A stretch of 64,000 bases of DNA from Octopus sinensis. Taxonomy: Eukaryota. A program made the position numbers and the translations under genes. The notes below the pieces were generated by a model. That model searched no databases, was not told the origin of the DNA, and was given only the letters and a program-made list of their open reading frames with translations. Location of the stretch: contig NC_043020.1 of NCBI RefSeq assembly GCF_006345805.1, forward strand, positions 5,642,001 to 5,706,000, read 5' to 3'. Shown in pieces: positions 9,710 to 40,164 of the stretch. How positions within the stretch are numbered: the stretch's first letter is position 1; every line of letters starts with the position of its first letter.

Positions 9710-9780
<71 letters not shown>

Positions 9781-9921: not shown

Positions 9922-9957
<36 letters not shown>

Positions 9958-10026
9958 TGTATATATATACACGCACATAGACACATATATATAAAGGAGA
10001 GAGTCTTTCTACTGATATGCACAAAT

Positions 10027-13755: not shown

Positions 13756-15457
13756 TATTTCTTTACTGCCCCCCAAGGGGCTAAACATAGAGGGGACAAA
13801 CAAGGACAGACAAACGGATTAAGTCGATTATATCGACCCCAGTGCGTAACTGGTACTTAATTTATCGACCCCGAAAGGATTGAAAGGCAAAGTCGACCTC
13901 GGCGGAATTTGAACTAAAAACGCTATGGCAGACGAAATACCTATTTCTTTACTACCACACAAGGGCAAACATAGAGGGGACAAACAAGGACAGACAAACG
14001 GATTAAGTCGATTATATCGACCCCAGTGCGTAACTGGTACTTAATTTATCGACCCCGAAAGGATTGAAAGGCAAAGTCGACCTCGGCGGAATTTGAACTA
14101 AAAACGCTATGGCAGAGACGAAATACCTATTTCTTTACTACCCACAAGGGGCTAAACATAGAGGGGACAAACAAGGACAGACAAACGGATTAAGTCGATT
14201 ATATCGACCCCAGTGCGTAACTGGTACTTAATTTATCGACCCCGAAAGGATTGAAAGGCAAAGTCGACCTCGGCGGAATTTGAACTAAAAACGCTATGGC
14301 AGACGAAATACCTATTTCTTTACTACCCACAAGGGGCTAAACATAGAGGGGACAAACAAGGACAGACAAACGGATTAAGTCGATTATATCGACCCCAGTG
14401 CGTAACTGGTACTTAATTTATCGACCCCGAAAGGATTGAAAGGCAAAGTCGACCTCGGCGGAATTTGAACTAAAAACGCTATGGCAGACGAAATACCTAT
14501 TTCTTTACTACCCACAAGGGGCTAAACATAGAGGGGACAAACAAGGACAGACAAACGGATTAAGTCGATTATATCGACTCCCAGGGCGTAACTGGTACTT
14601 AATATATCGACCCCGAAAGGATTGAAAGGCAAAGTCGACCTCGGCGGAATTTGAACTAAAAACGCTATGGCAGACGAAATACCTATTTCTTTACTACCCA
14701 CAAGGGGCTAAACATAGAGGGGACAAACAAGGACAGACAAACGGATTAAGTCGATTATATCGACCCCAGTGCGTAACTGGTACTTAATTTATCGACCCCG
14801 AAGGATTGAAAGGCAAAGTCGACCTCGGCGGAATTTGAACTAAAAACGCTATGGCAGACGAAATACCTATTTCTTTACTACCCACAAGGGGCTAAACATA
14901 GAGGGGACAAACAAGGACAGACAACGGATTAAGTCGATTATATCGACCCCAGTGCGTAACTGGTACTTAATTTATCGACCCCGAAAGGATTGAAAGGCAA
15001 AGTCGACCTCGGCGGAATTTGAACTAAAAACGCTATGGCAGACGAAATACCTATTTCTTTACTACCACAAGGGGCTAAACATAGAGGGGACAAACGGAAT
15101 TAAGTCGATTATATCGACCCCAGTGCGTAACTGGTACTTAATTTATCGACCCCGAAAGGATGAAATGAAGGCAAAGTCGACTCGGCGGAATTTGAACTAA
15201 AAACGCTATGGCAGACGAAATACCTATTTCTTTACTACCCACAAGGGGCTAAACATAGAGGGGACAAACAAGGACAGACAAACGGATTAAGTCGATTATA
15301 TCGACCCCAGTGCGTAACTGGTACTTAATTTATCGACCCCGAAAGGATTGAAAGGCAAAGTCGACCTCGGCGGAATTTGAACTCAGAACGTAGCGACAGA
15401 CGAAATACGGCTACGCATTTCGCCCGGCGTGCTAACGTTTCTGCCAGCTCACCGCCC
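13756..15457 (-). repeat. Tandem array of nine SINE-M tail-B units (~185-bp period) with a single 5' head
   Basis: The head ggcggtgagctggcagaaacgttagcacgccggg occurs only at ~15457-15410. The units are joined as ...gggtagtaaagaaata|ggtatttcgtctgcc. Confidence 0.92.
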
Positions 15458-17370: not shown

Positions 17371-17891
17371 GTTTCTTTACTACCCACAAGGGGCTAAACA
17401 TAGAGGGGGACAAACAAGGACAGACAAACGGATTAAGTCGATTACATCGACCCCAGTGCGTGACTGGTACTTAATTTATCGACCCCCAAAAAGATGAAAG
17501 GCAAAGTCGACCCCGGGGGAATTTGAACTCAGAACGTAACGGCAGACGAAATACGTATTTCTTTACTACCCACAAGGGGCTAAACACAGAGAGGACAAAC
17601 AAGGACAGACAAAGGGATTAAGTCGATTATATCGACCCCAGTGCGTAACTGGTACTTATTTAATCGACTCTGAAAGGATGAAAGGCAAAGTCGACCTCGG
17701 CGGAATTTGAACTCAGAACGTAGCGGCAGACGAAATACCTATTTCTTTACTACCCACAAGGGGCTAAACACAGAGGGGACAAACAAGGACAGACAAACGG
17801 ATTAAGTCGATTATATCGACTCCAGAGCGTAACTAGTACTTATTTAATCGACCCCGAAAGGATGAAAGGCAAAGTCGACCTCGGCGGAATG
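17371..17891 (-). repeat. Three tandem SINE-M tail-B units
   Basis: Junctions gtagtaaagaaata|ggtatttcg (~17740) and gtagtaaagaaata|cgtatttcg (~17555). Confidence 0.9.
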
Positions 17892-19739: not shown

Positions 19740-19970
19740 TATTTCTTTATTACCCACAAGGGGCTAAACACAGAGAGGACAAACAAGGACAGACAAACGG
19801 ATTAAGTCTATTATATCGACCCCAGTGCGTAACTGGTACTTATTTAATCGACCCCGAAGGGATGAAAGGCAAAGTCGACCTCGGCGGAATTTGAACTCAG
19901 AACGCAACCGCAGACGAAATACCGCTTAGTATTTCGCCCGGCGTGCTAACGTTTCTGCCAGCTCGCCGCC
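19740..19970 (-). mobile_element. Full-length SINE-M tail-B monomer with a 16-bp TSD, nested in an older SINE (~19581-20070, + strand)
   Basis: Runs from ggcggcgagctggcagaaacg to gggtaataaagaaata on the minus strand. The direct repeat tatttcgaaggtccag lies at 19722-19737 and 19971-19986. Confidence 0.9.
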
Positions 19971-21506: not shown

Positions 21507-22226
21507 ATTCTAGGCACAAGGCCCGTATTTTTGGAGAAGGAACCAGTTGATTAGATCGACCCAGTACGTAACTGGTTCTTACTTTATCGAACCCGAAAGG
21601 ATGAATGGCAAAGCCGACCTCAGCGGAATTTGAACTTAGAACGTAAAGACAGACGAAATACCTATTTCTTTACTACCCACAGAGGAGACAAACAAGGACA
21701 GACAAACGGATTAAGTCGATTACATCGACCCCAGTGCGTAACTGGTACTTAATTTATCGACTCCGAAAGGATGAAAGGCAAAGTCGACCTCGGCGGAATT
21801 TGAACTCAGAACGTAAAGACAGACGAAATACCTATTTCTTTACTACCCACAAGGGGCTAAACATAGAGGGGACAAACAAGGACAGACAAACGGATTAAGT
21901 CGATTATATCGACCCCAGTGCGTAACTGGTACTTAATTTATCGACTCCGAAAGGATGAAAGGCAAAGCCGACCTCGGCGGAATTTGAACTCAGACCGTAA
22001 CAGCAGACGAAATGCCGCTAAGCATTTCGCCCGACGTGTTAACGATTCTTATTTCTGTATTGCCCACAAGGGGCTAAACTCAGAGGGGACGAACAAGGAC
22101 AGACAAACGGATTAAGTCAATTATATCGACCCCAGTGCGTAACTTGAACTTAGAACGTAACGGCAGATGAAATGCCCGGTAAGCATTTCGCCCGGCGTGC
22201 TAACTATTCTGCCAGCTCGCCGCCTT
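21507..22226 (-). repeat. Nested SINE-M cluster: three tail-B units followed by one tail-A unit
   Basis: Junctions gggcaatacagaaata|agaatcgttaacacg (~22050) and gtagtaaagaaata|ggtatttcg (~21832 and ~21662). The terminal unit ends in the tail-A sequence gggccttgtgcctag. Confidence 0.88.
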
Positions 22227-22545: not shown

Positions 22546-22567
22546 GGATGCGAGCTGGCAGAAACGT
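22546..22567 (+). mobile_element. 5' stub of the SINE-M copy interrupted by the ORF1 array
   Basis: ggatgcgagctggcagaaacgt matches the SINE head ggcggcgagctggcagaaacgt. The SINE resumes at 38297. Confidence 0.8.
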
Positions 22568-22753
22568 CACCACTTCGTTTGACGTCGGTCGTGTTTTTTT
22601 ACGCTCTGTAAAATTCGGTAAAAAAGAACAAAAAGCGTTGTTGTTGTTGTGGAAATTCTGAACGGCGTTGACGCGGTTTCGCGTTTCGCTCGTTCAGCGC
22701 GTTAAACTTTTTTCTGTTTTGGCGGCCGTTTTCGGTCTGTCAGACAGAAGGAA

Positions 22754-24160
22754 ATGGACTATGAGTCTCTAACAGACTTGTCCACGACAGATGAGGAACT
22801 GGAACAGGCAATTGCAGTGAAGCTGATGGAGGAAAAGGCTGGAGTTTTCGAGTCTTTATCAGACTCGCCTACGTCTGAGAAGGAGCTAGAAATGGCAGCG
22901 AGGAATTTGGAAAAAAGCTGAGTTATACTTATGCCGGTGTAACCCGAAGCGGAAGAGAAAGGGGTCGACTTGGCCAAGCTACCAAGTTACCAGAAACACA
23001 TGAAAAAGGAAGCGGTGAGGTGGAACTATCACCGACACCCGGAGAAAAGAATGGTATGATAAGAGGACCATTGTTTACAGGGTGTGCGCAACGAAAGGAG
23101 AGGGTAGAAGTTGTATCCATGGAATGGATAGAGGAAGCCCTGCGAAGAACTGAGGAGGAAATAAATTTTCTGACTCGAGGATCCAAGTACGGGACCGTAG
23201 TTGTGCACTTTAAAAGTGAATCTGCAGCGAGGAAGATGGCAGCGAAGGCGGTGAAGTCGGAAAAGGTAACACTGTTACCTACGTATTTAAACAGGAGGAT
23301 TACACGAATAAGGGTGGAGGGAGTGCCACCAACGTGGAGGCAGAATGGATTGTGGCGGCTGTGATCAGCGGCCACGAGGACGAAGTGGATATTCTCCATG
23401 CCTCGGTTAAGTCCGAGGGCTGGAGAGGCGTAACAGTGGAGCTGAACGTACAGGCAGAGACCGAGGTACTGGTGGACCTGACGGAAAGCATCAGACTGGG
23501 AGAAGTGATCATGAGAGTGTGGGTGGAGGGCAGGGCTCCACGTTGTTACAAGTGTGGCCTGAGGGGTCACATAAGAGCCTTCTGCCCTCCCCCAGGGAAA
23601 GAAATGGATCCCGAACCAGAGAGAGAGAAGCAGAAACCAGAGGAGAAGGAAACAGAGGAAGAGAATACACAGAAATGGAAGGAAGCTGGAAGTAAGAGGA
23701 AGAGAAGAATACGTGGAAAAAAAATATATGAACTCCAATCCACCCCAAAACCACCCACGCCCTCTGAGTCCCACCCTATCCATGCAGACATTGAACCCAC
23801 CCCTCCCCCCCAACAAGAAAACAAAAGAAAAAAAAGAATACACACACACAAGAGATTGAATCGATATCAGGATCAGGCCGTACATTTGTACTATGACTGA
23901 ACAGAAGAAGTTAAAAGTCTAATGGAAGAGTATAAATGGTATGATGTTGGTGAGACTAGGTATGCTGTGATTGAAAAGAAGAACATAGGTGACTTTATGG
24001 TGATGTGTGAATGCGAGAATTGGGAGGTGAAAGATATAAGAATGAGCGATGAATTCGTGGAAAATATGGATGAGTATTTCGGAGTAAGAATGGATATGGA
24101 TTTGTTCGTATTGGCAAGGAACATTCAAGTGACTATGAAAAACAAAGGACAGGTAGTTGA
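22754..24160 (+). CDS. ORF1-like CCHC zinc-knuckle protein, unit 1 (several frameshifts)
   Basis: Collinear with unit 8 and retains CYKCGLRGHIRAFC. Many indels fall in homopolymer runs. Confidence 0.55.
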
Positions 24161-24505
24161 TGCTGACGGACGGGGCCGTTGGTATCGCTTTCATTTAATT
24201 ATCATTTTTTCGTTTAACAATTCATGTTCATAAAGTTTAATTATAATGTTATGTCCCCATGTTTCTTAGTGTCCCTTTCTGTGTCGCCCCTAGTGGGTAA
24301 TAAAGAAATAAGAAACGCCACCACTTCGTTTGACGTCGGTCGTGTTTTTTTACGCGCTCTGTAAAATTCGGTAAAAAAGAACAAAAAGCGTGGTTGTTGT
24401 TGTGGAAATTCTGAACGGCGTTGACGCGGTTTCGCGTTTCGCTCGTTCAGCGCGTTAACTTTTTTCTGTTTTGGCGGCCGTTTTCGGTCTGTCAGACAGA
24501 AGGAA

Positions 24506-25904
24506 ATGGACTATGAGTCTCTAACAGACTTGTCCACGACAGATGAGGAACTGGAACAGGCAATTGCAGTGAAGCTGATGGAGGAAAAGGCTGGATTTTC
24601 GAGTCTTTATCAGACTTGTCTGAGAAGGAGCTAGAAATGGCAGCAAGGAAATTGGAAAAGAAGCTGAGTTATACTTATGCCGTGTAACCAAGAAGGCGGA
24701 GAGAAAGGGGTCGACTTGGCCAAGCTACCAAGTTACCAGAAACACATGAAAAAGGAAAGCGGTGAGGTGGAACTATCACCGACACCCAGGAGAAAAGAAT
24801 GGTATGATAAGAGGACCATTGTTTACAGGGTGTTCGCAAACGAAAGGAAGAGGGTAGAAGTTGTAACCATGGAATGGATAGAGGAAGCCCTGCGAAGAAC
24901 TGAGGAGGAAATAAATTTTCTGACTCGAGGATCCAAGTATGGGACCGTAGTTGTGCATTTTAAAAGTGAATCTGCAGCGAGGAAGATGGCAGCGAAGGCG
25001 GTGAAGTCGGAAAAGGTAACACTGTTACCTACGTATTTAAACAGGAGGATTACACGAATAAGGGTGGAGGGTGCCACCAAACGTGGAGGCAGAATGGATT
25101 GTGGCGGCTGTGATCAGCGGCCACGAGGACGAAGTGGATATTCCCATGCCTCGGTTAAGTCCGAGGGCTGGAGAGGCGTAACAGTGGAGCTGAACGTACA
25201 GGCAGAGACCGAGGTACTGGTGGACCTGACGGAAAGCATCAGACTGGGAGAAGTGATCATGAGAGTGTGGGTGGAGGGCAGGGCTCCACGTTGTTACAAG
25301 TGTGGCCTGAGGGGTCACATAAGAGCCTTCTGCCCTCCCCCAGGGAAAGAAATGGATCCCGAACCAGAGAGAGAGAAGCAGAAACCAAGGAGAAGGAAAC
25401 AGAGGAAGAGAATACACAGAAATGGAAGGAAGCTGGAAGTAAGAGGAAGAGAAGAATACGTGGAAAAGAAAATAATATGGAACTCCAATCCACCCCAAAA
25501 CCACCCACGCCTCTGAGTCCCACCCTATCCATGCAGACATTGAACCCACCCGCTCCCCCCCAACAAGAAAACAAAAGAAAAAAAAGAATACACACACACA
25601 AGAGATTGAAATCGATATCAGGCCGTACATTTGTACTATGACTGAACAGAAAGAAGTTAAAAGTCTAATGGAAGAGTATAAATGGTATGATGTTGGTGAG
25701 ACTAGGTATGCTGTGATTGAAAAGAAGAACATAGGTGACTTTATGGTGATGTGTGAATGCGAGAATTGGGAGGTGAAAGATATAAGAATGAGCGATGAAT
25801 TCGTGGAAAATATGGATGAGTATTTCGGAGTAAGATGGATATGGAATTTGTTCGTATTGGCAAGGAACATTCAGTGACTATGAAAAACAAAGACAGGTAA
25901 GTGA
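24506..25904 (+). CDS. ORF1-like CCHC protein, unit 2 (frameshifted)
   Basis: Collinear with unit 8; fragments 24677-25516, 25267-25641 and 25638-25877 in the ORF track. Confidence 0.55.
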
Positions 25905-26247
25905 TGCTGACGGACGGGGCCGTTGGTATCGCTTTCATTTAATCATTTTTTCGTTTAACAATCCATGTTCATAAAGTTTAATTATAATGTTATATGTCCC
26001 CATGTTTCTTAGTGTCCCTTTCTGTGTCGCCCCTAGTGGGTAATAAAGAAATAAGAAACGCCACCACTTCGTTTGACGTCGGTCGTGTTTTTTTACGCTC
26101 TGTAAAATTCGGTAAAAAAGAACAAAAAGCGTGGTTGTTGTTGTGGAAATTCTGAACGGCGTTGACGCGGTTTCGCGTTTCGCTCGTTCAGCGCGTTAAA
26201 CTTTTTTCTGTTTTGGCGGCAGTTTTCGGTCTGTCAGACAGAAGGAA

Positions 26248-27650
26248 ATGGACTATGAGTCTCTAACAGACTTGTCCACGACAGATGAGGAACTGGAACA
26301 GGCAATTGCAGTGAAGCTGATGGAGGAAAAGGCTGGAGTTTTCGAGTCTTTATCAGACTTGTCTGAGAAGGAGCTAGAAATGGCAGCAAGGAATTCGGAA
26401 AAGAAGCTGAGTTATACTTATGCCGGTGTAACCAAGAAGGCGGAAGAGAAAGGGGTCGACTTGGCCAAGCTACCAAGTTACCAGAAACACATGAAAAAGG
26501 AAAGCGGTGAGGTGGAACTATCACCGACACCCAGGAGAAAAGAATGGTATGATAAGAGGACCATTGTTTACAGGGTGTTCGCAAACGAAAGGAAGAGGGT
26601 AGAAGTTGTAACCATGGAATGGATAGAGGAAGCCCTGCGAAGAACTGAGGAGGAAATAAATTTTCTGACTCGAGGATCCAAGTATGGGACCGTAGTTGTG
26701 CATTTTAAAAGTGAATCTGCAGCGAGGAAGATGGCGGCGAAGGCGGTGAAGTCGGAAAAGGTAACACTGTTACCTACGTATTTAAACAGGAGGATTACAC
26801 GAATAAGGGTGGAGGGAGTGCCACCAAATGTGGAGGCAGAATGGATTGTGGCGGCTGTGATCAGCGGCCACGAGGACGAAGTAGATATTCTCCATGCCTC
26901 GGTTAAGTCCGAGGGCTGGAGAGGCGTAACAGTGGAGCTGAACGTACAGGCAGAGACCGAGGTACTGGTGGACCTGACGGAAAGCATCAGACTGGGAGAA
27001 GTGATCATGAGAGTGTGGGTGGAGGGCAGGGCTCCACGTTGTTACAAGTGTGGCTGAGGGGTCACATAAGAGCCTTCTGCCCTCCCCCAGGGAAAGAAAT
27101 GGATCCGAACCAGAGAGAGAGAAGCAAAACCAGAGGAGAAGGAAACAGAGGAAGAGAATACACAGAAATGGAAGGGCTGGAAGTAAGAGGAAGAGAAGAA
27201 TACGTGAAAAGAAAATAATATGGAACTCCAATCCACCCCAAAACCACCCACGCCTCTGAGTCCCACCCTACCCATGCAGACATTGAACCCACCCGCTCCC
27301 CCCCAACAAGAAAACAAAAGAAAAAAAAGAATACACACACACAAGAGATTGAAAACGATATCAGGATGTACATTTGTACTATGACTGAACAGAAAGAAGT
27401 TAAAAGTCTAATGGAAGAGTATAAATGGTATGATGTTGGTGAGACTAGGTATGCTGTGATTGAAAAGAAGAACATAGGTGAGTTTATGGGGAGGTGTGAA
27501 AGGAAGAATTGGGAGGTGAAAGATATAAGAATGAGCGATGAATTCGTGGAAAACATGGATGAGTATTTCGGAGTAAGAATGGATATGGAATTTATTCGTA
27601 TTGGCAAAGAACATTCAAGTGACTATGAAAAACAAAGGACAGGTAAGTGA
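26248..27650 (+). CDS. ORF1-like CCHC protein, unit 3 (frameshifted after aa 269)
   Basis: ORFs 26248-27057 and 27366-27650 give the consensus N- and C-termini (MDYESL... and ...EKQRTGK*). Confidence 0.6.
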
Positions 27651-27992
27651 TGCTGACGGACGGGGCCGTTGGTATCGCTTTCATTTAATCATTTTTTCGT
27701 TTAACAATTCATGTTCATAAAGTTTAATTATAATGTTATATGTCCCCATGTTTCTTAGTGTCCTTTCTGTGTCGCCCCTAGTGGGTAATAAAGAAATAAG
27801 AAACGCCACCACTTCGTTTGACGTCGGTGTGTTTTTTTCGGCTCCTGAAAATTCGGTAAAAAAGAACAAAAAAGCGTTGTTGTTGTTGTGGAAATTCTGA
27901 ACGGCGTTGACGCGGTTTCGCGTTTCGCTCGTTCAGCGCGTTAAACTTTTTTCTGTTTTGGCGGCCGTTTTCGGTCTGTCAGACAGAAGGAA

Positions 27993-29396
27993 ATGGACTA
28001 TGAGTCTCTAACAGACTTGTCCACGACAGATGAGGAACTGGAACAGGCAATTGCAGTGAAGCTGATGGAGGAAAAGGCTGGAGTTTTCGAGTCTTTATCA
28101 GACTCGCCTACGTCTGAGAAGGAGCTAGAAATGGCAGCGAGGAATTTGGAAAGAAGCTGAGTTATACTTATGCCGGTGTAACCAAGAAGGCGGAAGAGAA
28201 AGGGGTCGACTTGGCCAAGCTACCAAGTTACCAGAACACATGAAAAAGGAAAGCGGTGAGGTGGAACTATCACCGACACCCAGGAGAAAAGAATGGTATG
28301 ATAAGAGGACCATTGTTTACAGGGTGTGCGCAAACGAAAGGAAGAGGGTAGAAGTTGTATCCATGGAATGGATAGAGGAAGCCCTGCGAAGAACTGAGGA
28401 GGAAATAAATTTTCTGACTCGAGGATCCAAGTACGGGACCGTAGTTGTGCACTTTAAAAGTGAATCTGCAGCGAGAAGATGGCAGCGAAGGCGGTGAAGT
28501 CGGAAAAGGTAACACTGTTACCTACGTATTTAAACAGGAGGATTACACGAATAAGGGTGGAGGGAGTGCCACCAAACGTGGAGGCAGAATGGATTGTGGC
28601 GGCTGTGATCAGCGGCCACGAGGACGAAGTGGATATTCTCCATGCCTCGGTTAAGTCCGAGGGCTGGAGAGGCGTAACAGTGGAGCTGAACGTACAGGCA
28701 GAGACCGAGGTACTGGTGGACCTGACGGAAAGCATCAGACTGGGAGAAGTGATCATGAGAGTGTGGGTGGAGGGCAGGGCTCCACGTTGTTACAAGTGTG
28801 GCCTGAGGGGTCACATAAGAGCCTTCTGCCCTCCCCCAGGGAAAGAATGGATCCCGAACCAGAGAGAGAGAAGCAGAAACCAGAGGAGAAGGAAACAGGA
28901 GAGAATCACAGAGAATGGAAGGAAGCTGGAAGTAAGAGGAAGAGAAGAATACGTGGAAAAGAAAATAATATGGAACTCCAATCCACCCCAAAACCACCCA
29001 CGCCCTCTGAGTCCCACCCTACCCATGCAGACATTGAACCCACCCCTCCCCCCAACAAAAAACAAAAGAAAAAAAAGAATACAAACACACAAGAGATTGA
29101 AAACGATATCAGGATGTACATTTGTACTATGACTGAACAGAAAGAAGTTAAAAGTCTAATGGAAGAGTATAAATGGTATGATTTGGTGAGACTAGGTATG
29201 CTGTGATTGAAAAGAAGAACATAGGTGAGTTTATGGGAAGGTGAAATGCGAGAATTGGGAGGTGAAAGATATAAGAATGAGCGATGAATTCGTGGAAAAT
29301 ATGGATGAGTATTTCGGAGTAAGAATGGATATGGAATTTGTTCGTATTGGCAAGGAACATTCAAGTGACTATGAAAAACAAAGGACAGGTAAGTGA
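27993..29396 (+). CDS. ORF1-like CCHC protein, unit 4 (frameshifted)
   Basis: Collinear with unit 8; fragments 28240-28497, 28479-29132 and 28763-29206. Confidence 0.55.
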
Positions 29397-29730
29397 TGCT
29401 GACGGACGGGGCCGTTGGTATCGCTTTCATTTAATCATTTTTTCGTTTAACAATTCATGTTCATAAAGTTTAATTATAATGTTCTATGTCCCCATGTCTT
29501 TTGGTGTCCCCTTCTGTGTCGCCCCTAGTGGGTAATAAAGAAATCACCACTTCGTTTGACGTCGGTTGTGTTTTTTTCGGCTCCTGAAAATTCGGTAAAA
29601 AAGAACAAAAAGCGGGGTTGTTGTTGTGGAAATTCTGAACGGCGTTGACGCGGTTTCGCGTTTCGCTCGTTCAGCGCGTTAAACTTTCTTCTGTTTTGGC
29701 GGCCGTTTTCGGTCTGTCAGACAGAAGGAA

Positions 29731-31136
29731 ATGGACTATGAGTCTCTAACAGACTTGTCCACGACAGATGAGGAACTGGAACAGGCAATTGCAGTGAAGC
29801 TGATGGAGGAAAAGCTGGAGATTTCGAGTCTTTATCAGACTTGTCTGCGTCTGAGAAGGAGCTAGAAATGGCAGCAAGGAAATTGGAAAAGAAGCTGAGT
29901 TATACTTATGCCGGTGTAACCAAGAAGGCGGAAGAGAAAGGGGTCGACTTGGCCAAACTACCAAGTTACCAGAAACACATGAAAAAGGAAAGCGGTGAGG
30001 TGGAACTATCACCGACACCAGGAGAAAAGAATGGTATGATAAGAGGACCATTGTTTACAGGGTGTTCGCAACGAAGGAAGAGGGTAGAAGTTGTAACCAT
30101 GGAATGGATAGAGGAAGCCCTGCGAAGAACTGAGGAGGAAATAAATTTTCTGACTCGAGGATCCAAGTATGGGACCGTAGTTGTGCATTTTAAAAGTGAA
30201 TCTGCAGCGAGGAAGATGGCGGCGAAGGCGGTGAAGTCGGAAAAGGTAACACTGTTACCTACGTATTTAAACAGGAGGATTACACGAATAAGGGTGGAGG
30301 GAGTGCCACCAAACGTGGAGGCAGAATGGATTGTGGCGGCTGTGATCAGCGCCACGAGGACGAAGTAGATATTCTCCATGCCTCGGTTAAGTCCGAGGGC
30401 TGGAGAGGCGTAACAGTGGAGCTGAACGTACAGGCAGAGACCGAGGTACTGGTGGACCTGACGGAAAGCATCAGACTGGGAGAAGTGATCATGAGAGTGT
30501 GGGTGGAGGGCAGGGCTCCACGTTGTTACAAGTGTGGCCTGAGGGGTCACATAAGAGCCTTCTGCCCTCCCCCAGGGAAAGAAATGGATCCCGAACCAGA
30601 GAGAGAGAAGCAGAAACCAGAGGAGAAGGAAACAGAGGAAGAGAATACACAGAAATGGAAGGAAGCTGGAAGTAAGAGGAAGAGAAGAATACGTGGAAAA
30701 GAAAATAATATGGAACTCCAATCCACCCCAAAACCACCCACGCCCTCTGAGTCCCACCCTATCCATGCAGACATTGAACCCACCCGCTCCCCCCCAACAA
30801 GAAAACAAAAGAAAAAAAAGAATACACACACACAAGAGATTGAAATCGATATCAGCCGTACATTTGTACTATGACTGAACAGAAAGAAGTAAAAGTCTAA
30901 TGGAAGAGTATAAATGGTATGATGTTGGTGAGACTAGGTATGCTGTGATTGAAAAGAAGAACATAGGTGACTTTATGGTGATGTGTGAATGCGAGAATTG
31001 GGAGGTGAAAGATATAAAGAGCGATGAATTCGTGGAAAATATGGATGAGTATTTCGGAGTAAGAATGGATATGGAATTTGTTCGTATTGGCAAGGAACAT
31101 TCAAGTGACTATGAAAAACAAAGGACAGGTAAGTGA
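29731..31136 (+). CDS. ORF1-like CCHC protein, unit 5 (frameshifted)
   Basis: Fragments 29841-30368, 30326-30874 and 30900-31136. Confidence 0.55.
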
Positions 31137-31479
31137 TGCTGACGGACGGGGCCGTTGGTATCGCTTTCATTTAATCATTTTTTCGTTTACAATTCATGTT
31201 CATAAAGTTTAATTATAATGTTATATGTCCCCATGTTTCTTAGTGTCCTTTCTGTGTCGCCCCTAGTGGGTAATAAAGAAATAGAAACGTCACCACTACT
31301 TCGTTTGACGTCGGTTGTGTTTTTTTCGGCTCCTGAAAATTCGGTAAAAAAGAACAAAAAGCGTGGTTGTTGTTGTGGAAACTCTGAACGGCGTTGACGC
31401 GGTTTCGCGTTTCGCTCGTTCAGCGCGTTAAACTTTTTTCTGTTTTGGCGGCCGTTTTCGGTCTGTCAGACAGAAGGAA

Positions 31480-32888
31480 ATGGACTATGAGTCTCTAACA
31501 GACTTGTCCACGACAGATGAGGAACTGGAACAGGCAATTGCAGTGAAGCTGATGGAGGAAAAGGCTGGAGTTTTCGAGTCTTTATCAGACTTGTCTGAGA
31601 AGGAGCTAGAAATGGCAGCAAGGAATTCGGAAAAGAAGCTGAGTTATACTTATGCCGGTGTAACCAAGAAGGCGGAAGAGAAAGGGGTCGACTTGGCCAA
31701 GCTACCAAGTTACCAGAAACACATGAAAAAGGAAAGCGGTGAGGTGGAACTATCACCGACACCCAGGAGAAAAGAATGGTACGATAAGAGGACCATTGTT
31801 TACAGGGTGTTCGCAAACGAAAGGAAGAGGTAGAAGTTGTAACCATGGAATGGATAGAGGAAGCCCTGCGAAGAACTGAGGAGGAAATAAATTTTCTGAC
31901 TCGAGGATCCAAGTATGGGACCGTAGTTGTGCATTTTAAAAGTGAATCTGCAGCGAGGAAGATGGCGGCGAAGGCGGTGAAGTCGGAAAAGGTAACACTG
32001 TTACCTACGTATTTAAACAGGAGGATTACACGAATAAGGGTGGAGGGAGTGCCACCAAACGTGGAGGCAGAATGGATTGTGGCGGCTGTATCAGCGGCCA
32101 CGAGGACGAAGTAGATATTCTCCATGCCGGTTAAGTCTGAGGGCTGGAGAGGCGTAACAGTGGAGCTGAACGTACAGGCAGAGACCGAGGTACTGGTGGA
32201 CCTGACGGAAAGCATCAGACTGGGAGAAGTGATCATGAGAGTGTGGGTGGAGGGCAGGGCTCCACGTTGTTACAAGTGTGGCCTGAGGGGTCACATAAGA
32301 GCCTTCTGCCCTCCCCCAGGAAAGAAATGGATCCCGAACCAGAGAGAGAAGCAGAAACCAGAGGAGAAGGAAACAGAGGAAGAGAATACACAGAAATGGA
32401 AGGAAGCTGGAAGTAAGAGGAAGAGAAGAATACGTGGAAAAGAAAATAATATGGAACTCCAATCCACCCCAAAACCACCCACGCCCTCTGAGTCCCACCC
32501 TATCCATGCAGACATTGAACCCACCCCACCCGCTCCCCCCCAACAAGAAAACAAAAGAAAAAAAAGAATACACACACACAAGAATTGAATCGATATCATA
32601 TCAGGCCGTACATTTGTACTATGACTGAACAAAAGAAGTTAAAAGTCTAATGGAGAGTATAAATGGTATGATGTTGGTGAGACTAGGTATGCTGTGATTG
32701 AAAAGAAGAACATAGGTGACTTTATGGTGATGTGTGAATGCGAGAATTGGGAGGTGAAAGATATAAGAATGAGCGATGAATTCGTGGAAAATATGGATGA
32801 GTATTTCGGAGTAAGAATGGATATGGAATTTGTTCGTATTGGCAAGGAACATTCAAGTGACTATGAAAAACAAAGGACAGGTAAGTGA
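31480..32888 (+). CDS. ORF1-like CCHC protein, unit 6 (frameshifted)
   Basis: Fragments 31480-31833, 31845-32114, 32124-32588 and 32694-32888. Confidence 0.55.
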
Positions 32889-33235
32889 TGCTGACGGACG
32901 GGGCCGTTGGTATCGCTTTCATTTATAATCATTTTTTCGTTTAACAATTCATGTTCATAAAGTTTAATTATAATGTTATATGTCCCCATGTTTCTTAGTG
33001 TCCCTTTCTGTGTCGCCCCTAGTGGTAATAAAGAAATAAGAAACGCACCACTTCGTTTGACGTCGGTCGTGTTTTTTTACGCTCTGTAAAATTCGGTAAA
33101 AAAGAACAAAAAGCGTGGTTGTTGTTGTGGAAATTCTGAACGGCGTTGACGCGGTTTCGCGTTTCGCTCGTTCAGCGCGTTAAACTTTTTTCTTTTTTGT
33201 TTTGCGGCCGTTTTCGGTCTGTCAGACAGAAGGAA

Positions 33236-34637
33236 ATGGACTATGAGTCTCTAACAGACTTGTCCACGACAGATGAGGAACTGGAACAGGCAATTGCAGT
33301 GAAGCTGATGGAGGAAAAGGCTGGAGTTTTCGAGTCTTTATCAGACTTGTCTGAGAAGGAGCTAGAAATGGCAGCAAGGAAATTGGAAAAGAAGCTGAGT
33401 TATACTTATGCCGGTGTAACCAAGAAGGCGGAAGAGAAAGGGGTCGACTTGGCCAAGCTACCAAGTTACCAGAAACACATGAAAAAGGAAAGCGGTGAGG
33501 TGGAACTATCACCGACACCCAGGAGAAAAGAATGGTATGATAAGAGGACCATTGTTTACAGGGTGTGCGCAAACGAAAGGAAGAGGGTAGAAGTTGTATC
33601 CATGGAATGGATAGAGGAAGCCCTGCGAAGAACTGAGGAGGAAATAAATTTTCTGACTCGAGGATCCAAGTACGGGACCGTAGTTGTGCACTTTAAAAGT
33701 GAATCTGCAGCGAGGAAGATGGCAGCGAAGGCGGTGAAGTCGGAAAAGGTAACACTGTTACCTACGTATTTAAACAGGAGGATTACACGAATAAGGGTGG
33801 AGGGAGTGCCACCAAACGTGGAGGCAGAATGGATTGTGGCGGCTGTGATCAGCGGCCACGAGGACGAAGTAGATATTCTCCATGCCTCGGTTAAGTCCGA
33901 GGGCTGGAGAGGCGTAACAGTGGAGCTGAACGTACAGGCAGAGACCGAGGTACTGGTGGACCTGACGGAAAGCATCAGACTGGGAGAAGTGATCATGAGA
34001 GTGTGGGTGGAGGGCAGGGCTCCACGTTGTTACAAGTGTGGCCTGAGGGGTCACATAAGAGCCTTCTGCCCTCCCCCAGGGAAAGAAATGGATTCCGAAC
34101 CAGAGAGAGAGAAGCAGAAACCAGAGGAGAAGGAAACAGAGAAGAGAATACACAGAAATGGAAGGAAGCTGGAAGTAAGAGGAAGAGAAGAATACGTGGA
34201 AAAGAAAACAATATGGAACTCCAATCCACCCCAAAACCACCCACGCCCTCTGAGTCCCACCCTACCCATGCAGACATTGAACCCACCCGCTCCCCCCCAA
34301 CAAGAAAACAAAAGAAAAAAAAGAATACACACACACAAGAGATTGAAAACGATATCAGGATGTACATTTGTACTATGACTGAACAGAAAGAAGTTAAAAG
34401 TCTAATGGAAGAGTATAAATGGTATGATGTTGGTGAGACTAGGTATGCTGTGATTGAAAAAAGAACATAGGTGAGTTTATGGTGTGTGAAAGGAAGAATT
34501 GGGAGGTGAAAGATATAAGAATGAGCGATGAATTCGTGGAAAAGGATGAGTATTTCGGAGTAAGAATGGATATGGAATTTGTTCGTATTGGCAAAGAACA
34601 TTCAAGTGACTATGAAAAACAAAGGACAGGTAAGTGA
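33236..34637 (+). CDS. ORF1-like CCHC protein, unit 7 (frameshifts in the 3' third)
   Basis: Open from MDYESL through the knuckle to EEKETE (~34140), then shifts frame. Confidence 0.65.
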
Positions 34638-34979
34638 TGCTGACGGACGGGGCCGTTGGTATCGCTTTCATTTAATCATTTTTTCGTTTAACACATTCAT
34701 GTTCATAAAGTTTAATTATAATGTTATATGTCCCCATGTTTCTTAGTGTCCCTTTCTGTGTCGCCCCTAGTGGGTAATAAAGAAATAAGAAACGTCACCA
34801 CTTCGTTTGACGTCGGTGTGTTTTTTTCGGCTCCTGAAAATTCGGTAAAAAAGAACAAAAAGCGTGTTGTTGTTGTGGAAATTCTGAACGGCGTTGACGC
34901 GGTTTCGCGTTTCGCTCGTTCAGCGCGTTAAACTTTTTTCTGTTTTGGCGGCCGTTTTCGGTCTGTCAGACAGAAGGAA

Positions 34980-36396
34980 ATGGACTATGAGTCTCTAACA
35001 GACTTGTCCACGACAGATGAGGAACTGGAACAGGCAATTGCAGTGAAGCTGATGGAGGAAAAGGCTGGAGTTTTCGAGTCTTTATCAGACTCGCCTACGT
35101 CTGAGAAGGAGCTAGAAATGGCAGCGAGGAATTTGGAAAAGAAGCTGAGTTATACTTATGCCGGTGTAACCAAGAAGGCGGAAGAGAAAGGGGTCGACTT
35201 GGCCAAGCTACCAAGTTACCAGAAACACATGAAAAAGGAAAGCGGTGAGGTGGAACTATCACCGACACCCAGGAGAAAAGAATGGTATGATAAGAGGACC
35301 ATTGTTTACAGGGTGTGCGCAAACGAAAGGAAGAGGGTAGAAGTTGTATCCATGGAATGGATAGAGGAAGCCCTGCGAAGAACTGAGGAGGAAATAAATT
35401 TTCTGACTCGAGGATCCAAGTACGGGACCGTAGTTGTGCACTTTAAAAGTGAATCTGCAGCGAGGAAGATGGCAGCGAAGGCGGTGAAGTCGGAAAAGGT
35501 AACACTGTTACCTACGTATTTAAACAGGAGGATTACACGAATAAGGGTGGAGGGAGTGCCACCAAACGTGGAGGCAGAATGGATTGTGGCGGCTGTGATC
35601 AGCGGCCACGAGGACGAAGTAGATATTCTCCATGCCTCGGTTAAGTCCGAGGGCTGGAGAGGCGTAACAGTGGAGCTGAACGTACAGGCAGAGACCGAGG
35701 TACTGGTGGACCTGACGGAAAGCATCAGACTGGGAGAAGTGATCATGAGAGTGTGGGTGGAGGGCAGGGCTCCACGTTGTTACAAGTGTGGCCTGAGGGG
35801 TCACATAAGAGCCTTCTGCCCTCCCCCAGGGAAAGAAATGGATCCCGAACCAGAGAGAGAGAAGCAGAAACCAGAGGAGAAGGAAACAGAGGAAGAGAAT
35901 ACACAGAAATGGAAGGAAGCTGGAAGTAAGAGGAAGAGAAGAATACGTGGAAAAGAAAATAATATGGAACTCCAATCCACCCCAAAACCACCCACGCCCT
36001 CTGAGTCCCACCCTATCCATGCAGACATTGAACCCACCCGCTCCCCCCCAACAAGAAAACAAAAGAAAAAAAAGAATACACACACACAAGAGATTGAAAA
36101 CGATATCAGGATGTACATTTGTACTATGACTGAACAGAAAGAAGTTAAAAGTCTAATGGAAGAGTATAAATGGTATGATGTTGGTGAGACTAGGTATGCT
36201 GTGATTGAAAAGAAGAACATAGGTGAGTTTATGGGGATGTGTGAAAGCGAAGAATTGGGAGGTGAAAGATATAAGAATGAGCGATGAATTCGTGGAAAAC
36301 ATGGATGAGTATTTCGGAGTAAGAATGGATATGGAATTTATTCGTATTGGCAAAGAACATTCAAGTGACTATGAAAAACAAAGGACAGGTAAGTGA
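34980..36396 (+). CDS. ORF1-like (Tx1/L1-type) RRM + CCHC zinc-knuckle protein, unit 8, the best copy; ~471 aa after removing one extra base near 36248
   Basis: Acidic N-terminus, SYTYAGV motif, RRM-like YGTVVVHFKSESAARKM and RIRVEGVPPNVEAEWI, then RVWVEGRAPR-CYKCGLRGHIRAFC (CX2CX4HX4C). A basic/Pro linker (KRKRR) precedes an ~90-aa C-terminal region. ATG to consensus TGA is 1417 nt, i.e. 472 codons plus 1. Confidence 0.8.
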
Positions 36397-36739
36397 TGCT
36401 GACGGACGGGGCCGTTGGTATCGCTTTCATTTAATCATTTTTTCGTTTAACAATTCATGTTCATAAAATTTAATTATAATGTTATATGTCCCCATGTTTC
36501 TTAGTGTCCCTTTCTGTGTCGCCCCTAGTGGGTAATAAAGAAATAAGAAACGTTAGCACGTCGTTTGACGTCGGTTGTGTTTTTTTCGGCTCCTGAAAAT
36601 TCGGTAAAAAAGAACAAAAAGCGTGGTTGTTGTTGTGGAAATTCTGAACGGCGTTGACGCGGTTTCGCGTTTCGCTCGTTCAGCGCGTTAAACTTTTTTC
36701 TGTTTTGGCGGCCGTTTTCGGTCTGTCAGACAGAAGGAA

Positions 36740-38148
36740 ATGGACTATGAGTCTCTAACAGACTTGTCCACGACAGATGAGGAACTGGAACAGGCAATTG
36801 CAGTGAAGCTGATGGAGGAAAAGGCTGGAGTTTTCGAGTCTTTATCAGACTCGCCTACGTCTGAGAAGGAGCTAGAAATGGCAGCGAGGAATTTGGAAAA
36901 GAAGCTGAGTTATACTTATGCCGGTGTAACCAAGAAGGCGGAAGAGAAAGGGGTCGACTTGGCCAAGCTACCAAGTTACCAGAAACACATGAAAAAGGAA
37001 AGCGGTGAGGTGGAACTATCACCGACACCCAGGAGAAAAGAATGGTATGATAAGAGGACCATTGTTTACAGGGTGTGCGCAAACGAAAGGAAGAGGGTAG
37101 AAGTTGTATCCATGGAATGGATAGAGGAAGCCCTGCGAACTGAGGAGGAAATAAATTTTCTGACTCGAGGATCCAAGTACGGGACCGTAGTTGTGCACTT
37201 TAAAAGTGAATCTGCAGCGAGGAAGATGGCAGCGAAGGCGGTGAAGTCGGAAAAGGTAACACTGTTACCTACGTATTTAAACAGGAGGATTACACGAATA
37301 AGGGTGGAGGGAGTGCCACCAAACGTGGAGGCAGAATGGATTGTGGCGGCTGTGATCAGCGGCCACGAGGACGAAGTAGATATTCTCCATGCCTCGGTTA
37401 AGTCTGAGGGCTGGAGAGGCGTAACAGTGGAGCTGAACGTACAGGCAGAGACCGAGGTACTGGTGGACCTGACGGAAAGCATCAGACTGGGAGAAGTGAT
37501 CATGAGAGTGTGGGTGGAGGGCAGGGCTCCACGTTTGTTACAGTGTGGCCTGAGGGGTCACATAAGAGCCTTCTGCCCTCCCCCAGGGAAAGAAATGGAT
37601 CCCGAACCAGAGAGAGAGAAGCAGAAACCAGAGGAGAAGGAAACAGAGGAAGAGAATACACAGAAATGGAAGGAAGCTGGAAGTAAGAGGAAGAGAAGAA
37701 TACGTGGAAAAGAAAATAATATGGAACTCCAATCCACCCCAAAACCACCCACGCCCTCTGAGTCCCACCCTATCCATGCAGACATTGAACCCACCCGCTC
37801 CCCCAACAAGAAAACAAAAGAAAAAAAAGAATACACACACACAGAGATTGAAAACGATATCAGGATGTACATTTGTACTATGACTGAACAGAAAGAAGTT
37901 AAAAGTCTAATGGAAGAGTATAAATGGTATGATGTTGGTGAGACTAGGTATGCTGTGATTGAAAAGAAGAACATAGGTGAGTTTATGGGGAGGTGTGAAA
38001 GGAAGAATGGGAGGTGAAAGATATAAGAATGAGCGATGAATTCGTGGAAAACATGGATGAGTATTTCGGAGTAAGAATGGATATGGAATTTATTCGTATT
38101 GGCAAAGAACATTCAAGTGACTATGAAAAACAAAGGACAGGTAAGTGA
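36740..38148 (+). CDS. ORF1-like protein, unit 9 (425 aa open, late frameshift, knuckle locally shifted)
   Basis: ORF 36740-38017. Compensating indels change RCYKC to RLLQC. Confidence 0.7.
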
Positions 38149-38296
38149 TGCTGACGGACGGGGCCGTTGGTATCGCTTCATTTAATCATTTTTTCGTTTA
38201 ACAATTCATGTTCATAAAATTTAATTATAATGTTATATGTCCCCATGTTTCTTAGTGTCCCTTTCTGTGTCGCCCCTAGTGGGTAATAAAGAAATA

Positions 38297-38870
38297 AGAA
38301 ACGTTAGCACGCCGGGTGAAATGCTTAGTGGTATTTCGTCTGCCATTACGGTCTGAGTTCAAATTCCGCCGAGGTCGACTTCGCCTTTCATCCTTTCGGG
38401 GTCGATAAATTAAGTACCAGTTATGCACTGGTGTCGATATAATCAACTTAATCCGTTTGTCTGTCCTTGTTTGTCCTCTCTGTGTTTGGCCCCTTGTGGG
38501 TAGTAAAGAAATAGAAATTTCTGACTGCCGTTACGTTGTGAGTTCAAATTCCGCCGAGGTCGACCTTGCCTTTCATCCTTTCGGCGGTCGATTAAATAAG
38601 TACCAGTTACGCACTGGGGTCGATGTAATCGACTTAATCCGTTTGTCTGTCTTCGTTTGTCCTCTCTATGTTTAGCTCCTTGTGGCTAGTAAAGAAATAG
38701 GTATTTCGTCTGCCGTTACGTTCTAAGTTCAAATTTCGCCTAGGTCGACTTTGCCTTTCATCTTTTCAGGATCGATAAATTAAGTACCAGCTAAAAATTT
38801 GGGTCGATGTAATCGACTTACCCTCGCCCTCGTAACTGTGGACCTTGTAACAAAAAATTTAAAGCCAATA
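38297..38870 (+). mobile_element. Remainder of the interrupted SINE-M: two tail-B units followed by a tail-A unit
   Basis: agaaacgttagcacgccgggtgaaatgc, B-box gagttcaaattcc and the SINE core. Tail-B ends lie at ~38513 and ~38699, and a tail-A-like end (gaccttgtaacaaaaaattt) at ~38860. Confidence 0.88.
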
Positions 38871-39042
38871 TAAAGATAGATTATGAGCGAGTTGAAAGAG
38901 AGGGAGGGGACTGAGTCTGCTTCCCTCCACCCCTGTTCCTTGGAATAGCTCAAAAATATGGAATTACTCTCGAAGCTGCTGTTTCAAGCTCTAATAAATA
39001 GACAAACTACTAGAAAAAAAGAAGTCGTTTTCACAGCTCAAA

Positions 39043-40164
39043 ATGGTTAAACGATTACCGTTACACATAGTGAATAGTATTTCTTGGATTTTGCAGCTGA
39101 TTTTATTTTCTTCATCAGTCGCTTTGATAATCTACTCTATCGCTAACGATGTCTGTGTATGTTCAGATGTAGGTTTGTTATGTGATCTAGACAGGCCACA
39201 TATCTACTACAATTGCTCTGCGGCAGGAAATCGACCGACTTTAGAAACTTGTCCGTCTGGGCAGCGATTCGATGTCTTTCGTGGAGTCTGCCTTCTTCCA
39301 TGTGATGTTGTCGAATGTTTGAAAGGGAGAGAGCTTCGTAAAAAATTTTATTTTCCAAATAAGTGTCGTTTTAATTTTTCTTCGCCATTATCGACTTCAT
39401 TTACGGAAAACTTGCAGAATGGGTGTTCTACAACTGCCACTGATGGTCAAAATTTATCCACTGCTGTTGATGTAAGTCCATCTAATTCGCTGACAAAGAA
39501 AATATTGACAAAGGTATCATTCGCAGACGACGATGTGGCTGTCAATCTTGTGAACTCCTCATACAACTTGTCCATACAAAATGATGACCAGTCGTTTCAG
39601 ATCGTCTCTGAGGAGTTAAAATTGAACGAAACTGCCACAGTCTCTCAACTCCTTCCCGTTAATAACCCAGCTAACACGACTAATGAATTGGAGACATTTA
39701 CCAGTCGTACTACGCCAACGTTGAAGTCGTTTACAAGAGAAAACCTATCAACAGAGAAGTCTCCCACTAACGTTACTCGAGCGGAATCAGTCCAACATGA
39801 ATTAAATTCTAAAGTCGAATCGAATTTGAGCCCCACCGAAGAAAACGGAGAGAAACGAAATCGAACTCAGTTTGAACCGTTGAATAATAGAACTGTTACT
39901 GCAAGAACAGGGACACCCCTATGGAAAGAGTTCGGTCTCCAGTCTCGTCAGCAACGAGATAAACTTGTGCAGCTGTGTAAACAAGGGTCGACATTTCTCT
40001 GCGATTCTTCGGACCGTTCAGTCTTTTACCGCTGCTTTAACAATCGGCCTTACCGCTACATTTGTCCAAAACCATTACTCTTCGATTCCAATATAAAAGA
40101 ATGTAGTCGCAATAAGAATGCGGTCTGTTTGCCGTCCATGGATTGGCGGCGTTTGGAAAAATAA
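39043..40164 (+). CDS. Secreted or membrane-anchored protein with two chitin-binding type-2 (peritrophin-A/CBM14-like) domains and a Ser/Thr-rich linker
   Basis: 373-aa ORF with a hydrophobic N-terminus. Two Cys motifs (C...IYYNC...TCPSGQRFDVFRGVC and C...VFYRCFNNRPYRYICPKPLLFDSNIKEC...C) flank an S/T/N/E-rich spacer. The start is uncertain because there is a possible splice acceptor, ttttgcag, at ~39096. Confidence 0.8.
   Translation: MVKRLPLHIVNSISWILQLILFSSSVALIIYSIANDVCVCSDVGLLCDLDRPHIYYNCSAAGNRPTLETCPSGQRFDVFRGVCLLPCDVVECLKGRELRKKFYFPNKCRFNFSSPLSTSFTENLQNGCSTTATDGQNLSTAVDVSPSNSLTKKILTKVSFADDDVAVNLVNSSYNLSIQNDDQSFQIVSEELKLNETATVSQLLPVNNPANTTNELETFTSRTTPTLKSFTRENLSTEKSPTNVTRAESVQHELNSKVESNLSPTEENGEKRNRTQFEPLNNRTVTARTGTPLWKEFGLQSRQQRDKLVQLCKQGSTFLCDSSDRSVFYRCFNNRPYRYICPKPLLFDSNIKECSRNKNAVCLPSMDWRRLEK

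Follow-up and report, generated by a model that had tools for sequence, protein, structure and literature searches.

Structure of the array

The window (the whole 64,000-nucleotide stretch analysed here) contains nine head-to-tail units at 22568–38296, each 1728–1743 bp from head motif to tail. When the left flank, GCGAGCTGGC|AGAAACGT (22550–22567), is joined to the right flank, AGAAACGTTAGCACGCCGG, which starts at 38297, the result is a SINE head matching an intact SINE at 19741–19966; this confirms the preliminary description of this array as an interruption of one SINE. The nick in the host SINE would fall between 22559 and 22560. The features are as follows:

22550..22567, + strand: host SINE head, 5' half with the left copy of the duplicated target (GCGAGCTGGC + AGAAACGT)
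22568..24310, + strand: unit 1; ORF1 ATG at 22754, stop at 24160, frame broken by indels in this assembly
24319..26053, + strand: unit 2; linker AGAAACGC upstream
26062..27798, + strand: unit 3; linker AGAAACGC upstream
27807..29544, + strand: unit 4; minor tail haplotype, no linker before unit 5
29545..31283, + strand: unit 5
31291..33038, + strand: unit 6
33046..34787, + strand: unit 7; open frame of 412 aa, stop to stop
34796..36545, + strand: unit 8; open frame of 451 aa, stop to stop, with RRM-like domains at about residues 112–198 and 199–280 and a CCHC knuckle at 282–297
36546..36560, + strand: target copy of 15 bp, AGAAACGTTAGCACG, separating unit 8 from unit 9 and overlapping the element's target-like 5' end
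36561..38296, + strand: unit 9; open frame of 441 aa, stop to stop
38297..38512, + strand: host SINE 3' part, with the right target copy, a B-box-like motif, body and 3' tail
38517..38820, + strand: two more head-less tandem SINE units (184-bp type)

Units in the window differ from each other by 7–52 substitutions, the minimum being between units 8 and 9. Their junctions are of five kinds, and the three AGAAACGC linkers differ from the local target. Unit 9 has the shared tail ...CCCCTAGTGGGTAATAAAGAAATA at its end and an AATAAA hexamer at 38285. The longest stop-to-stop frames in the nine copies range from 157 to 451 aa. The protein of about 470 aa first ascribed to each unit is a property of the family, in which an open frame of 469–473 aa is present in 8 of 81 copies, and not of the window copies, none of which is fully open in this assembly. 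Frame breaks in the window are mostly single-base indels, 47 of the 93 private indel columns lie in homopolymers, and letters absent from unit 1 are present in contigs from other sequencing runs. Assembly error is therefore the likely source of these breaks in general, rather than a cause established locus by locus. In two DNA runs, read depth over the unit exceeds that of the unique flank by a factor of about a thousand or more, a ratio that gives no copy number. No listed run is recorded as RNA; two runs guessed to be RNA cover parts of the unit and are no evidence of expression.

The host SINE

Within the SINE head, TGGCAGAAACG fits TRGYNNARNNG, the general A-box consensus, with no mismatches, and a B-box-like motif (GTTCAAATT, one mismatch) lies 64 nt beyond it. 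ARAGORN and Rfam scans gave no tRNA or Rfam match. Features of tRNA-derived SINEs are present in the target, namely A and B boxes in the head, a LINE-like tail and target duplications, the last seen for the host SINE at C8600, C7:63.67 and C5:48.4. Named octopus SINEs include OK, OR1 and OR2. The preliminary description inferred that insertion separates the promoter boxes and that the SINE serves as a "safe harbour", but the right half retains the B-box-like motif and two additional A-box-like motifs.

Exact empty SINE-head sites number 22,263 and exact occupied junctions of all kinds 811. The SINE also inserts into itself at the same base, and accounts for 28 of the first 30 of these occupied junctions. 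Its 3' tail, which at 38297..38512 resembles those of the repeated element and of the LINE described below, is common to all three. The SINE is thus a true target, as first proposed, but not a host only, since it carries the tail of the whole group and fills most occupied sites.

An ORF1-only element

Each unit combines two RRM-like domains with a CCHC knuckle, an arrangement that is a feature of Tx1-clade ORF1 proteins. ORF1 is under purifying selection; its core gives dS 0.40 and dN 0.065 between subfamilies A and C, and dN 0.28 between A and B, where dS is near saturation. The predicted ORF1 fold matches tandem-RRM structures (best Foldseek E 5e-05; Z up to 8.7), and L1 ORF1p structures do not appear in the fold-match lists. 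The zf-CCHC match is under the Pfam cut-off (E 0.068), with knuckle residues conserved in the alignment. An Atlas lead (score 0.90) pointed to RNA-binding domains of the ZCCHC3 type, for which a literature search gave no paper in support.

No RT or endonuclease frame was found in the unit, in agreement with the preliminary description. All 98 exact matches to the ORF1 end continue into a short UTR and none into ORF2. LINE ORF1 cores are 36–42% identical to the ORF1-only core, and the element keeps AGGTAAGT(G/A)ATG, a motif found at the ORF1/ORF2 boundary in six of the nine LINE copies shown. ORF1-only arrays occur on many chromosomes and comprise several subfamilies (A, B and C); 5' truncations are seen, and truncated copies are flanked by target duplications of 14–22 bp. 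We are confident that the unit is an ORF1-only derivative ("half-LINE") of an octopus L1/Tx1-type LINE, which upholds its initial classification as a non-autonomous retroelement. ORF2 was lost directly after its start codon, leaving head, ORF1 and 3' tail, and the derivative is an old one. A fresh internal deletion of the SINE-site LINE was rejected, as the ORF1 cores are 39% identical. Candidate ORF2 remnants in the UTR scored 57.5, 62.0 and 38.5 against shuffle maxima of 63.5, 57.5 and 60.0, near or at chance. A GCCCC-loop-GGGU tail hairpin, predicted for the LINE, type B and the SINE, was discarded for its weak z-scores (-0.6, -1.5 and 0.2); the type-A tail is predicted to fold differently.

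The partner LINE

A 5.3-kb L1/Tx1-type LINE has its head and tail in common with the element and occupies the same arrays and the same SINE site. It encodes an ORF1 of 589 aa and an ORF2 of 1131 aa, stop to stop, and ORF2 contains Exo_endo_phos (PF03372), RVT_1 (PF00078) and zf-RVT (PF13966) domains, which bears out the expected autonomous APE-RT element with a matching tail. The best solved relative of ORF2 is human L1 ORF2p (E 5.5e-69), with R2 at 3.7e-23. There is no labelled Tx1 reference among the database matches, and the assignment stays at the L1/Tx1 group. The three LINE copies at the SINE site all differ from sister copies at four endonuclease residues (3/3); their frames are all broken in this assembly, and the intact copy belongs to a sister subfamily. 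The common head, tail, site and arrays suggest that the element is mobilised in trans by the partner ORF2p. One tail unites the LINE, the abundant SINE and several ORF1-only subfamilies as a clan.

Arrays across the genome

The nine-deep stack of one unit family originally reported is real in the window, but arrays elsewhere mix the LINE with ORF1-only subfamilies. LINE, A, B and C units lie head to tail inside one SINE at C2:57.15, the LINE is joined to three A units at C6:45.2 and to two B units at C2:169.36, and arrays reach 14 units. Besides the 5.3-kb LINE, elements within mixed arrays are 68–80% identical. Among 75 exact tails, 56 lead into another element, 12 into a SINE half and seven into other DNA, and a poly(A) run follows none of them (0/75). 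Recurrent insertion at TGGC^AGAAACG was borne out, as 12 of 19 array-end tails adjoin the SINE head and six loci have single copies with SINE halves on both sides. Target duplications are 8–15 bp at this site and 14–22 bp elsewhere.

The claim that the family as a whole targets the SINE did not hold. Type-B tails lie at the SINE in 6 of 33 cases (6 of the 15 that are non-internal), and a sister lineage targets it with 0 of 54 tails. Against the share of >20% of flanks in one repeat that PMC4494074 gives for a target-specific non-LTR element, array-end tails and non-internal type-B tails lie above and the sister lineage below. The preference for TGGC^AGAAACG belongs to some lineages and not to the whole family. 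In the major lineage, joins outside the SINE begin with AGA in 6/6 cases, and in the sister lineage CC follows the terminal TCA in 16 of 25 non-linker joins.

Across 81 copies, distance is 18.4 within arrays and 20.6 between arrays. Only 18 of 72 units have their nearest relative in their own array; the other 54 have an equally close or closer one elsewhere. Units are mosaics of haplotype blocks common to several units, and their substitutions recur in copies on other chromosomes. Clonal amplification or assembly duplication was rejected as the main cause, given the divergence of the units and the similar distances within and between arrays. Linker type tracks the upstream tail haplotype across chromosomes: the major tail is followed by 39 AGAAACG linkers, 12 SINE ends, seven other sequences and no direct joins, and the minor tail by eight direct joins, five other sequences and no AGAAACG. 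One linker, present in arrays on both C3 and C5, is identical to the sequence flanking a copy on C16. At C4:35.39, one 18-bp duplication encloses two differently truncated units. A local target variant stands at every junction at C2:169.36 and C2:110.2, and locus-specific target copies lie between units at these loci and at C5:48.4.

Array construction and target choice

With 22,263 empty sites available, independent stacking at one site is not credible without a local mechanism. The arrays were built by multi-template reverse transcription or by local re-insertion, and it is very probable that reverse transcription of several different RNAs made them. In the scheme that we favour, element RNA would be coated by its own ORF1p and reverse-transcribed in trans by the partner ORF2p. 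Site preference would probably depend both on nicking by the endonuclease and on base pairing of the two RNA ends. At the 3' end, a tag acquired by read-through (AGAAACGU...; the tag expected on RNA ends is AAGAAACGU(CA)) would anneal where the strand is nicked; at the other end, the target-like 5' sequence (AGAAACGT-CACCACTTCG vs AGAAACGT-TAGCACGCCG, 14/18 alike) would pair with the upstream overhang. Each array would lengthen through successive rounds of reverse transcription at a single break. On reaching the 5' end of one RNA, the enzyme would cross via the common linker to the 3' end of a second, with templates from a mixed RNA pool; re-priming on a regenerated target copy is an alternative growth step. 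This combination of half-LINE origin, trans-mobilisation, pairing-aided targeting and mixed arrays built by reverse transcription is probable as a whole, and we lean slightly towards a contribution of RNA tags to target choice. The 8-nt tag by itself is insufficient: AGAAACGT occurs 152,681 times, at least 22,263 of these (15%) in exact SINE heads, and perfect-match landings number 12 in the SINE to one elsewhere. RNA-to-RNA transfer is also a poorer fit than re-insertion or copying at the DNA level for the repeated local target variants of some arrays and for the identical truncation point of a tandem LINE pair at C6:112.83.

A further reading, in which target choice is inherited on the RNA and the same terminal redundancy chains RNAs into arrays, is tentative and on balance doubtful. 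Read-through past AATAAA would place the target duplication of the source locus on both transcript ends. The 3' tag would guide priming to matching DNA, keeping a lineage with its repeat while the endonuclease is unchanged, and the redundancy would chain different RNAs in one event, much like retroviral R-region strand transfer. The SINE, also a client, would supply the commonest address and insert into itself.

Endonuclease specificity for the SINE head, with sequential double insertion into a regenerated site, is an unlikely alternative. Later elements would enter that site as in R1 tandems, linkers would be target duplications, lineages with other targets would rely on other LINE subfamilies, and specificity would resemble that of Tx1-Mar for Mariner-N4. 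The four endonuclease residues that set the SINE-site LINE copies apart fit such ordinary enzyme specificity and speak against the favoured scheme; the locus-specific target copies between units, and precedents described in PMC2718515, PMC5932611 and PMC4494074, point the same way. Specificity gives no reason for 9–14 hits on one site when empty sites so outnumber occupied ones, and arrays also stand at non-SINE sites (C2:110.2, C6:70.5 and C5:19.15). The association of linker type with upstream tail, the C16 flank recurring on C3 and C5, and window linkers unlike the local target are likewise unexpected under it.

Amplification of a single insertion or dimer by unequal exchange or rolling circle with gene conversion, making the array a young satellite, is very improbable. 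The closeness of units 8 and 9, the LINE pair truncated at one point and the uniform junctions of some arrays would suit it, but the divergent elements and LINE combined in mixed arrays largely refute post-insertion amplification as the main mechanism, and the relatives at other loci and the five junction kinds in the window also count against it; local unit addition may occur. Least credible is that the array is an artefact of long-read assembly, or a host gene for an RNA-binding protein duplicated in tandem. The many single-base indels, database relatives annotated as uncharacterised host genes and the lack of a spanning contig among those examined from other runs would suit this reading. 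Against it, substitutions are common to copies on other chromosomes, many loci show target duplications, 5' truncations or single copies, a separate run's contigs contain tail-to-head joints, and ORF1 is homologous to LINE ORF1.

Comparison with known systems

The ingredients are each precedented, by HAL1, Tx1-Mar/SINEU, R1 tandems and HeT-A/TART. HAL1 (half-L1) of mammals is described as a non-autonomous L1-group derivative that encodes ORF1p alone (PMC5753468). The octopus element is similar in coding only for ORF1p, in the homology of its ORF1 to that of an L1-group LINE and in its marks of target-primed insertion; it differs in its two-RRM and CCHC type of ORF1, its radiation into several subfamilies, its preference for one SINE site and its mixed arrays. 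Mammalian HAL1 is poly(A)-tailed, unlike the octopus copies at their junctions, and the octopus host and the 75 tails without poly(A) set the element apart from mammalian HAL1 proper.

Crocodilian Tx1-Mar with SINEU, and Xenopus Tx1L, are reported as LINEs and clients with a preferred site in an abundant transposon, with tandem copies around a target duplication and nesting of SINEU, Tx1 and target (PMC4494074). In those systems a DNA transposon serves as target and the client is non-coding, whereas the octopus target is a self-inserting SINE with the LINE's tail, and the client codes for ORF1p and forms arrays of up to 14 units. Drosophila R1 forms head-to-tail non-LTR copies at one site with target duplications between them, described as single-family arrays that average two to three copies in a limited rDNA target (PMC2718515, PMC5932611); in the octopus, targets are present in large excess, and arrays combine autonomous with several non-autonomous families. 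HeT-A, TART and TAHRE combine ORF1-only and RT-coding partners in same-direction mixed arrays, where regulatory sequence may come from neighbours (PMC5537684). The octopus arrays are interstitial, endonuclease-primed, bounded by target duplications and L1/Tx1-derived, and no host function is claimed for them. In the account of R1Bm and SART1Bm in PMC7265360, the endonuclease fixes the target, and an RNA that carries downstream target sequence can pair with the nicked strand and so prime more accurately; near-identical octopus lineages differ in junction starts, which raises the possibility that the tag has a part in setting the target.

Literature searches found no description of this combination or family, and sequences in Repbase, Dfam and SINEBase may hold a consensus. 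A curated O. vulgaris library with 13 recently active L1-Tx1 families may also include one (PMC13282606). The clan offers a compact natural system for apportioning target setting between RNA–DNA pairing and endonuclease and for tracing the origin of long tandem arrays. An ORF1-only lineage selected long after its split from the LINE ORF1s found here makes it testable what a private ORF1p is for. The LINE is a candidate partner for the most abundant octopus SINE, and the scheme would account for SINE-in-SINE tandems. If tags do steer targets, this would bear on RNA-programmed insertion tools. Some relatives of the element are presently called host genes by annotation pipelines.

SINE-site array in the window

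The window, at C24:5642001–5706000 of a 2.72-Gb genome, contains nine tandem copies of the ORF1-only unit (type A), which differ by 7–52 substitutions in pairwise comparisons. Put together, the array flanks restore a SINE head resembling the intact SINE copy at 19741–19966. The break lies inside a motif that matches the general A-box pattern. The unit coordinates and rejoined flanks confirm the preliminary description of nine head-to-tail units interrupting one SINE; its wider interpretation, with borrowing of a partner's endonuclease and reverse transcriptase (RT), is supported in part and extended here. The ~470-aa protein ascribed to each unit holds for the family, with the full ORF1 frame open in 8 of 81 copies genome-wide (469–473 aa), and not for the window (0 of 9). 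The eight junctions carry AGAAACGC (three), AGAAACGT-type linkers (three), a 15-bp AGAAACGTTAGCACG (one), or no linker (one). Contigs of two DNA runs, and of another two presumed to be RNA, cover the unit and include letters absent from unit 1, and tail-to-head joints were seen in contigs of run X11. Octopus species are the source of the named protein relatives.

Features of the window
22568–38296: nine-unit array, head to tail, units of 1728–1743 bp
13756–15408, 17372–17890, 21545–22013, 38330–38820: 184-bp head-less SINE units repeated in tandem
38998–40164, + strand: 388-aa frame lying 700 bp downstream of the array, with chitin-binding peritrophin-A (CBM_14) domains
9700–10947, + strand: 415-aa intronless-looking frame, rhodopsin-family G-protein-coupled receptor
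52824–53642, − strand: unrelated reverse transcriptase fragment with PHD-like zinc finger

Successive 184-bp SINE units are joined at another fixed point, GAAATA/GGTATTTCG, which likewise lies within an A-box-like motif. The same point marks the end of a LINE at C5:48.4 (contig and Mb).

Partner LINE

Another class of tail, repeated at 5.4-kb intervals, belongs to a LINE. The partner-type LINE encodes an ORF1 of 589 aa and an ORF2 of 1131 aa (stop to stop) with endonuclease, RT, and zf-RVT domains, the nearest solved structure to ORF2 being human L1 ORF2p. We provisionally call it a member of the L1/Tx1 group. Three copies (C6:45.2, C2:169.36, and C2:57.15) are 98.7–99.6% alike, have their first 70–80 bases in common with the unit, and stand first, on the 5' side, in arrays that interrupt SINE heads; in this assembly all three have broken frames. 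With its two enzymes, unit-like head, and place in the same arrays, this LINE matches the autonomous partner that had been predicted. Sister LINE copies are 91–95% alike and have a different head and different targets.

The sister subfamily (L095; C9:102.24, C5:48.16, C10:57.3) occupies a single site, TGGCATGGTTTGTCCGAT, of another multi-copy repeat, with an 18-bp duplication. A head-to-tail array at C9:70.50–70.52 Mb (L087–L089) holds at least four LINE copies of 4.7–5.4 kb, two internally deleted, and one more diverged LINE.

Target sites

The 75 exact tails run into another element in 56 cases, into the SINE half in 12, and into other DNA in seven. The last comprise a further LINE inside a SINE, a perfect AGAAACGT site, another subfamily (two), and type-A copies in unrelated DNA with 17–18-bp duplications (three). 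Both SINE halves flank a single copy at six loci. The count of exact empty sites is 22,263 over 5.4 billion positions, and chance is therefore excluded for SINE-site landings. Type-B tails end at SINEs in six, internal junctions in 18, and others in nine of the 33 matches listed. The expectation of one SINE target describes some lineages and fails for a sister lineage, with SINE-site landings in 0 of 54 tails.

Further lineages have recurring 3' flanks of their own, AGAGAAAATATTTTGAC... (C3:8725223, C15:35759583, C16:38543320, C10219:5958) and TAAC(A/C)TGGAGGAAAGC... (C6:40764629 and others), suggesting additional target repeats.

In the major lineage, each of the six non-SINE joins begins with AGA. 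The sister-lineage tail ends in GAATCA, and TCA is missing from the left duplication in all five testable copies; its non-linker joins continue with CC in 16 of 25 (two of the 25 are probably one locus assembled twice). Read from these sequences, join starts in both lineages follow that lineage's own linker. A model in which the RNA tag alone chooses the target is opposed by the 152,681 occurrences of the 8-mer, mostly outside exact SINE heads, and by four endonuclease residues that set SINE-site LINE copies apart from sister copies. The best reading of target choice combines a nicking preference with pairing at both ends of the RNA.

The SINE 3' end is a tail closely similar to that of the element, and the first 30 of 811 exact junctions between tail and SINE half are made up of 28 SINE tails, a single type-A unit, and a single non-element match. 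The SINE is thus a target and a probable client. Most of the SINE copies that occupy the head site (L125 / L131–L156) have the tail variant GGGCAATAAAG, which suggests that a SINE subfamily is linked to this site.

Array formation

Distances were compared for 81 type-A copies from 21 loci at 107 informative columns. Mean distance was 18.4 within arrays versus 20.6 between arrays, and 18 of 72 array units had their nearest relative strictly inside their own array. Type-A units are mosaics of shared blocks, and LINE, A, B, C, and additional subfamilies stand together in arrays, so arrays sample a genome-wide pool of elements. Targets are in large excess and arrays also occur at non-SINE sites, which calls for a local mechanism. 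RNA-to-RNA transfer is favored by linker types that track the haplotype of the upstream tail, by one duplication enclosing two differently truncated units, and by a linker in use on C3 and C5 that is the flank of a C16 copy. Variants of the local target found between units, together with truncation points that coincide, favor repeated priming or insertion at one break. Probably both act in array growth.

Every tail has AATAAA and then the linker; at the eight internal junctions the following unit's U/GU-rich head comes next. AATAAA followed by a U/GU-rich stretch is the geometry of polyadenylation. Polyadenylation directed by the tail and the next head would keep the linker on the RNA 3' end.

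Comparison with known systems

Each single ingredient of the octopus system is already known. The comparison literature covers HAL1 (PMC5753468), Tx1-Mar and SINEU (PMC4494074), R1 tandems (PMC2718515), double insertion (PMC5932611), RNA-target annealing (PMC7265360), HeT-A (PMC5537684), and tandem SINEs (PMC10702118), and includes PMC4758252 and PMC9004415. For O. vulgaris, the available portion of one report gives 13 recently active L1-Tx1 families, with targets not described (PMC13282606). A search confined to the literature listed no account of an L1/Tx1 derivative that encodes ORF1 alone, favors the SINE of its own clan, and forms interstitial arrays of mixed composition; the element consensus may already be catalogued in repeat databases.

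ORF1 protein and lineage age

The structural check agreed with the proposed RRM-like protein. The predicted model of the unit 8 frame (mean pLDDT 72; >85 across residues 91–300) resembles tandem RRM structures in fold comparison. Matches to single RRM/ferredoxin-like folds reached Z of 8.7, near the background of that search. A CCHC knuckle follows the RRM-like region.

The type-A ORF1 core shares 86% identity with subfamily C, 61–62% with subfamily B, and 36–42% with LINE ORF1s. Its dN/dS is 0.16 versus C and about 0.11 versus B, with dS near saturation for B, and the same short UTR follows the ORF1 end in 98 of 98 exact matches. The unit is therefore an old ORF1-only lineage rather than a recent deletion derivative. 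An as yet undiscovered LINE with a closer ORF1 is conceivable, if unlikely.

The ORF1 end (window 38135–38150, with equivalents in every unit and LINE) contains AG/GTAAGT, a perfect 5' splice-donor consensus retained by the units with ORF1 alone and by most of the LINE subfamilies examined. In type A, the stop there overlaps the next ATG (TGATG). Two O. vulgaris predicted proteins (P0004, P0005) consist of the element's last 90–100 residues repeated three times in tandem, which implies that arrays of units truncated at the 5' end have been annotated as genes. In a further predicted protein, P0006, a host gene is fused to the same residues.
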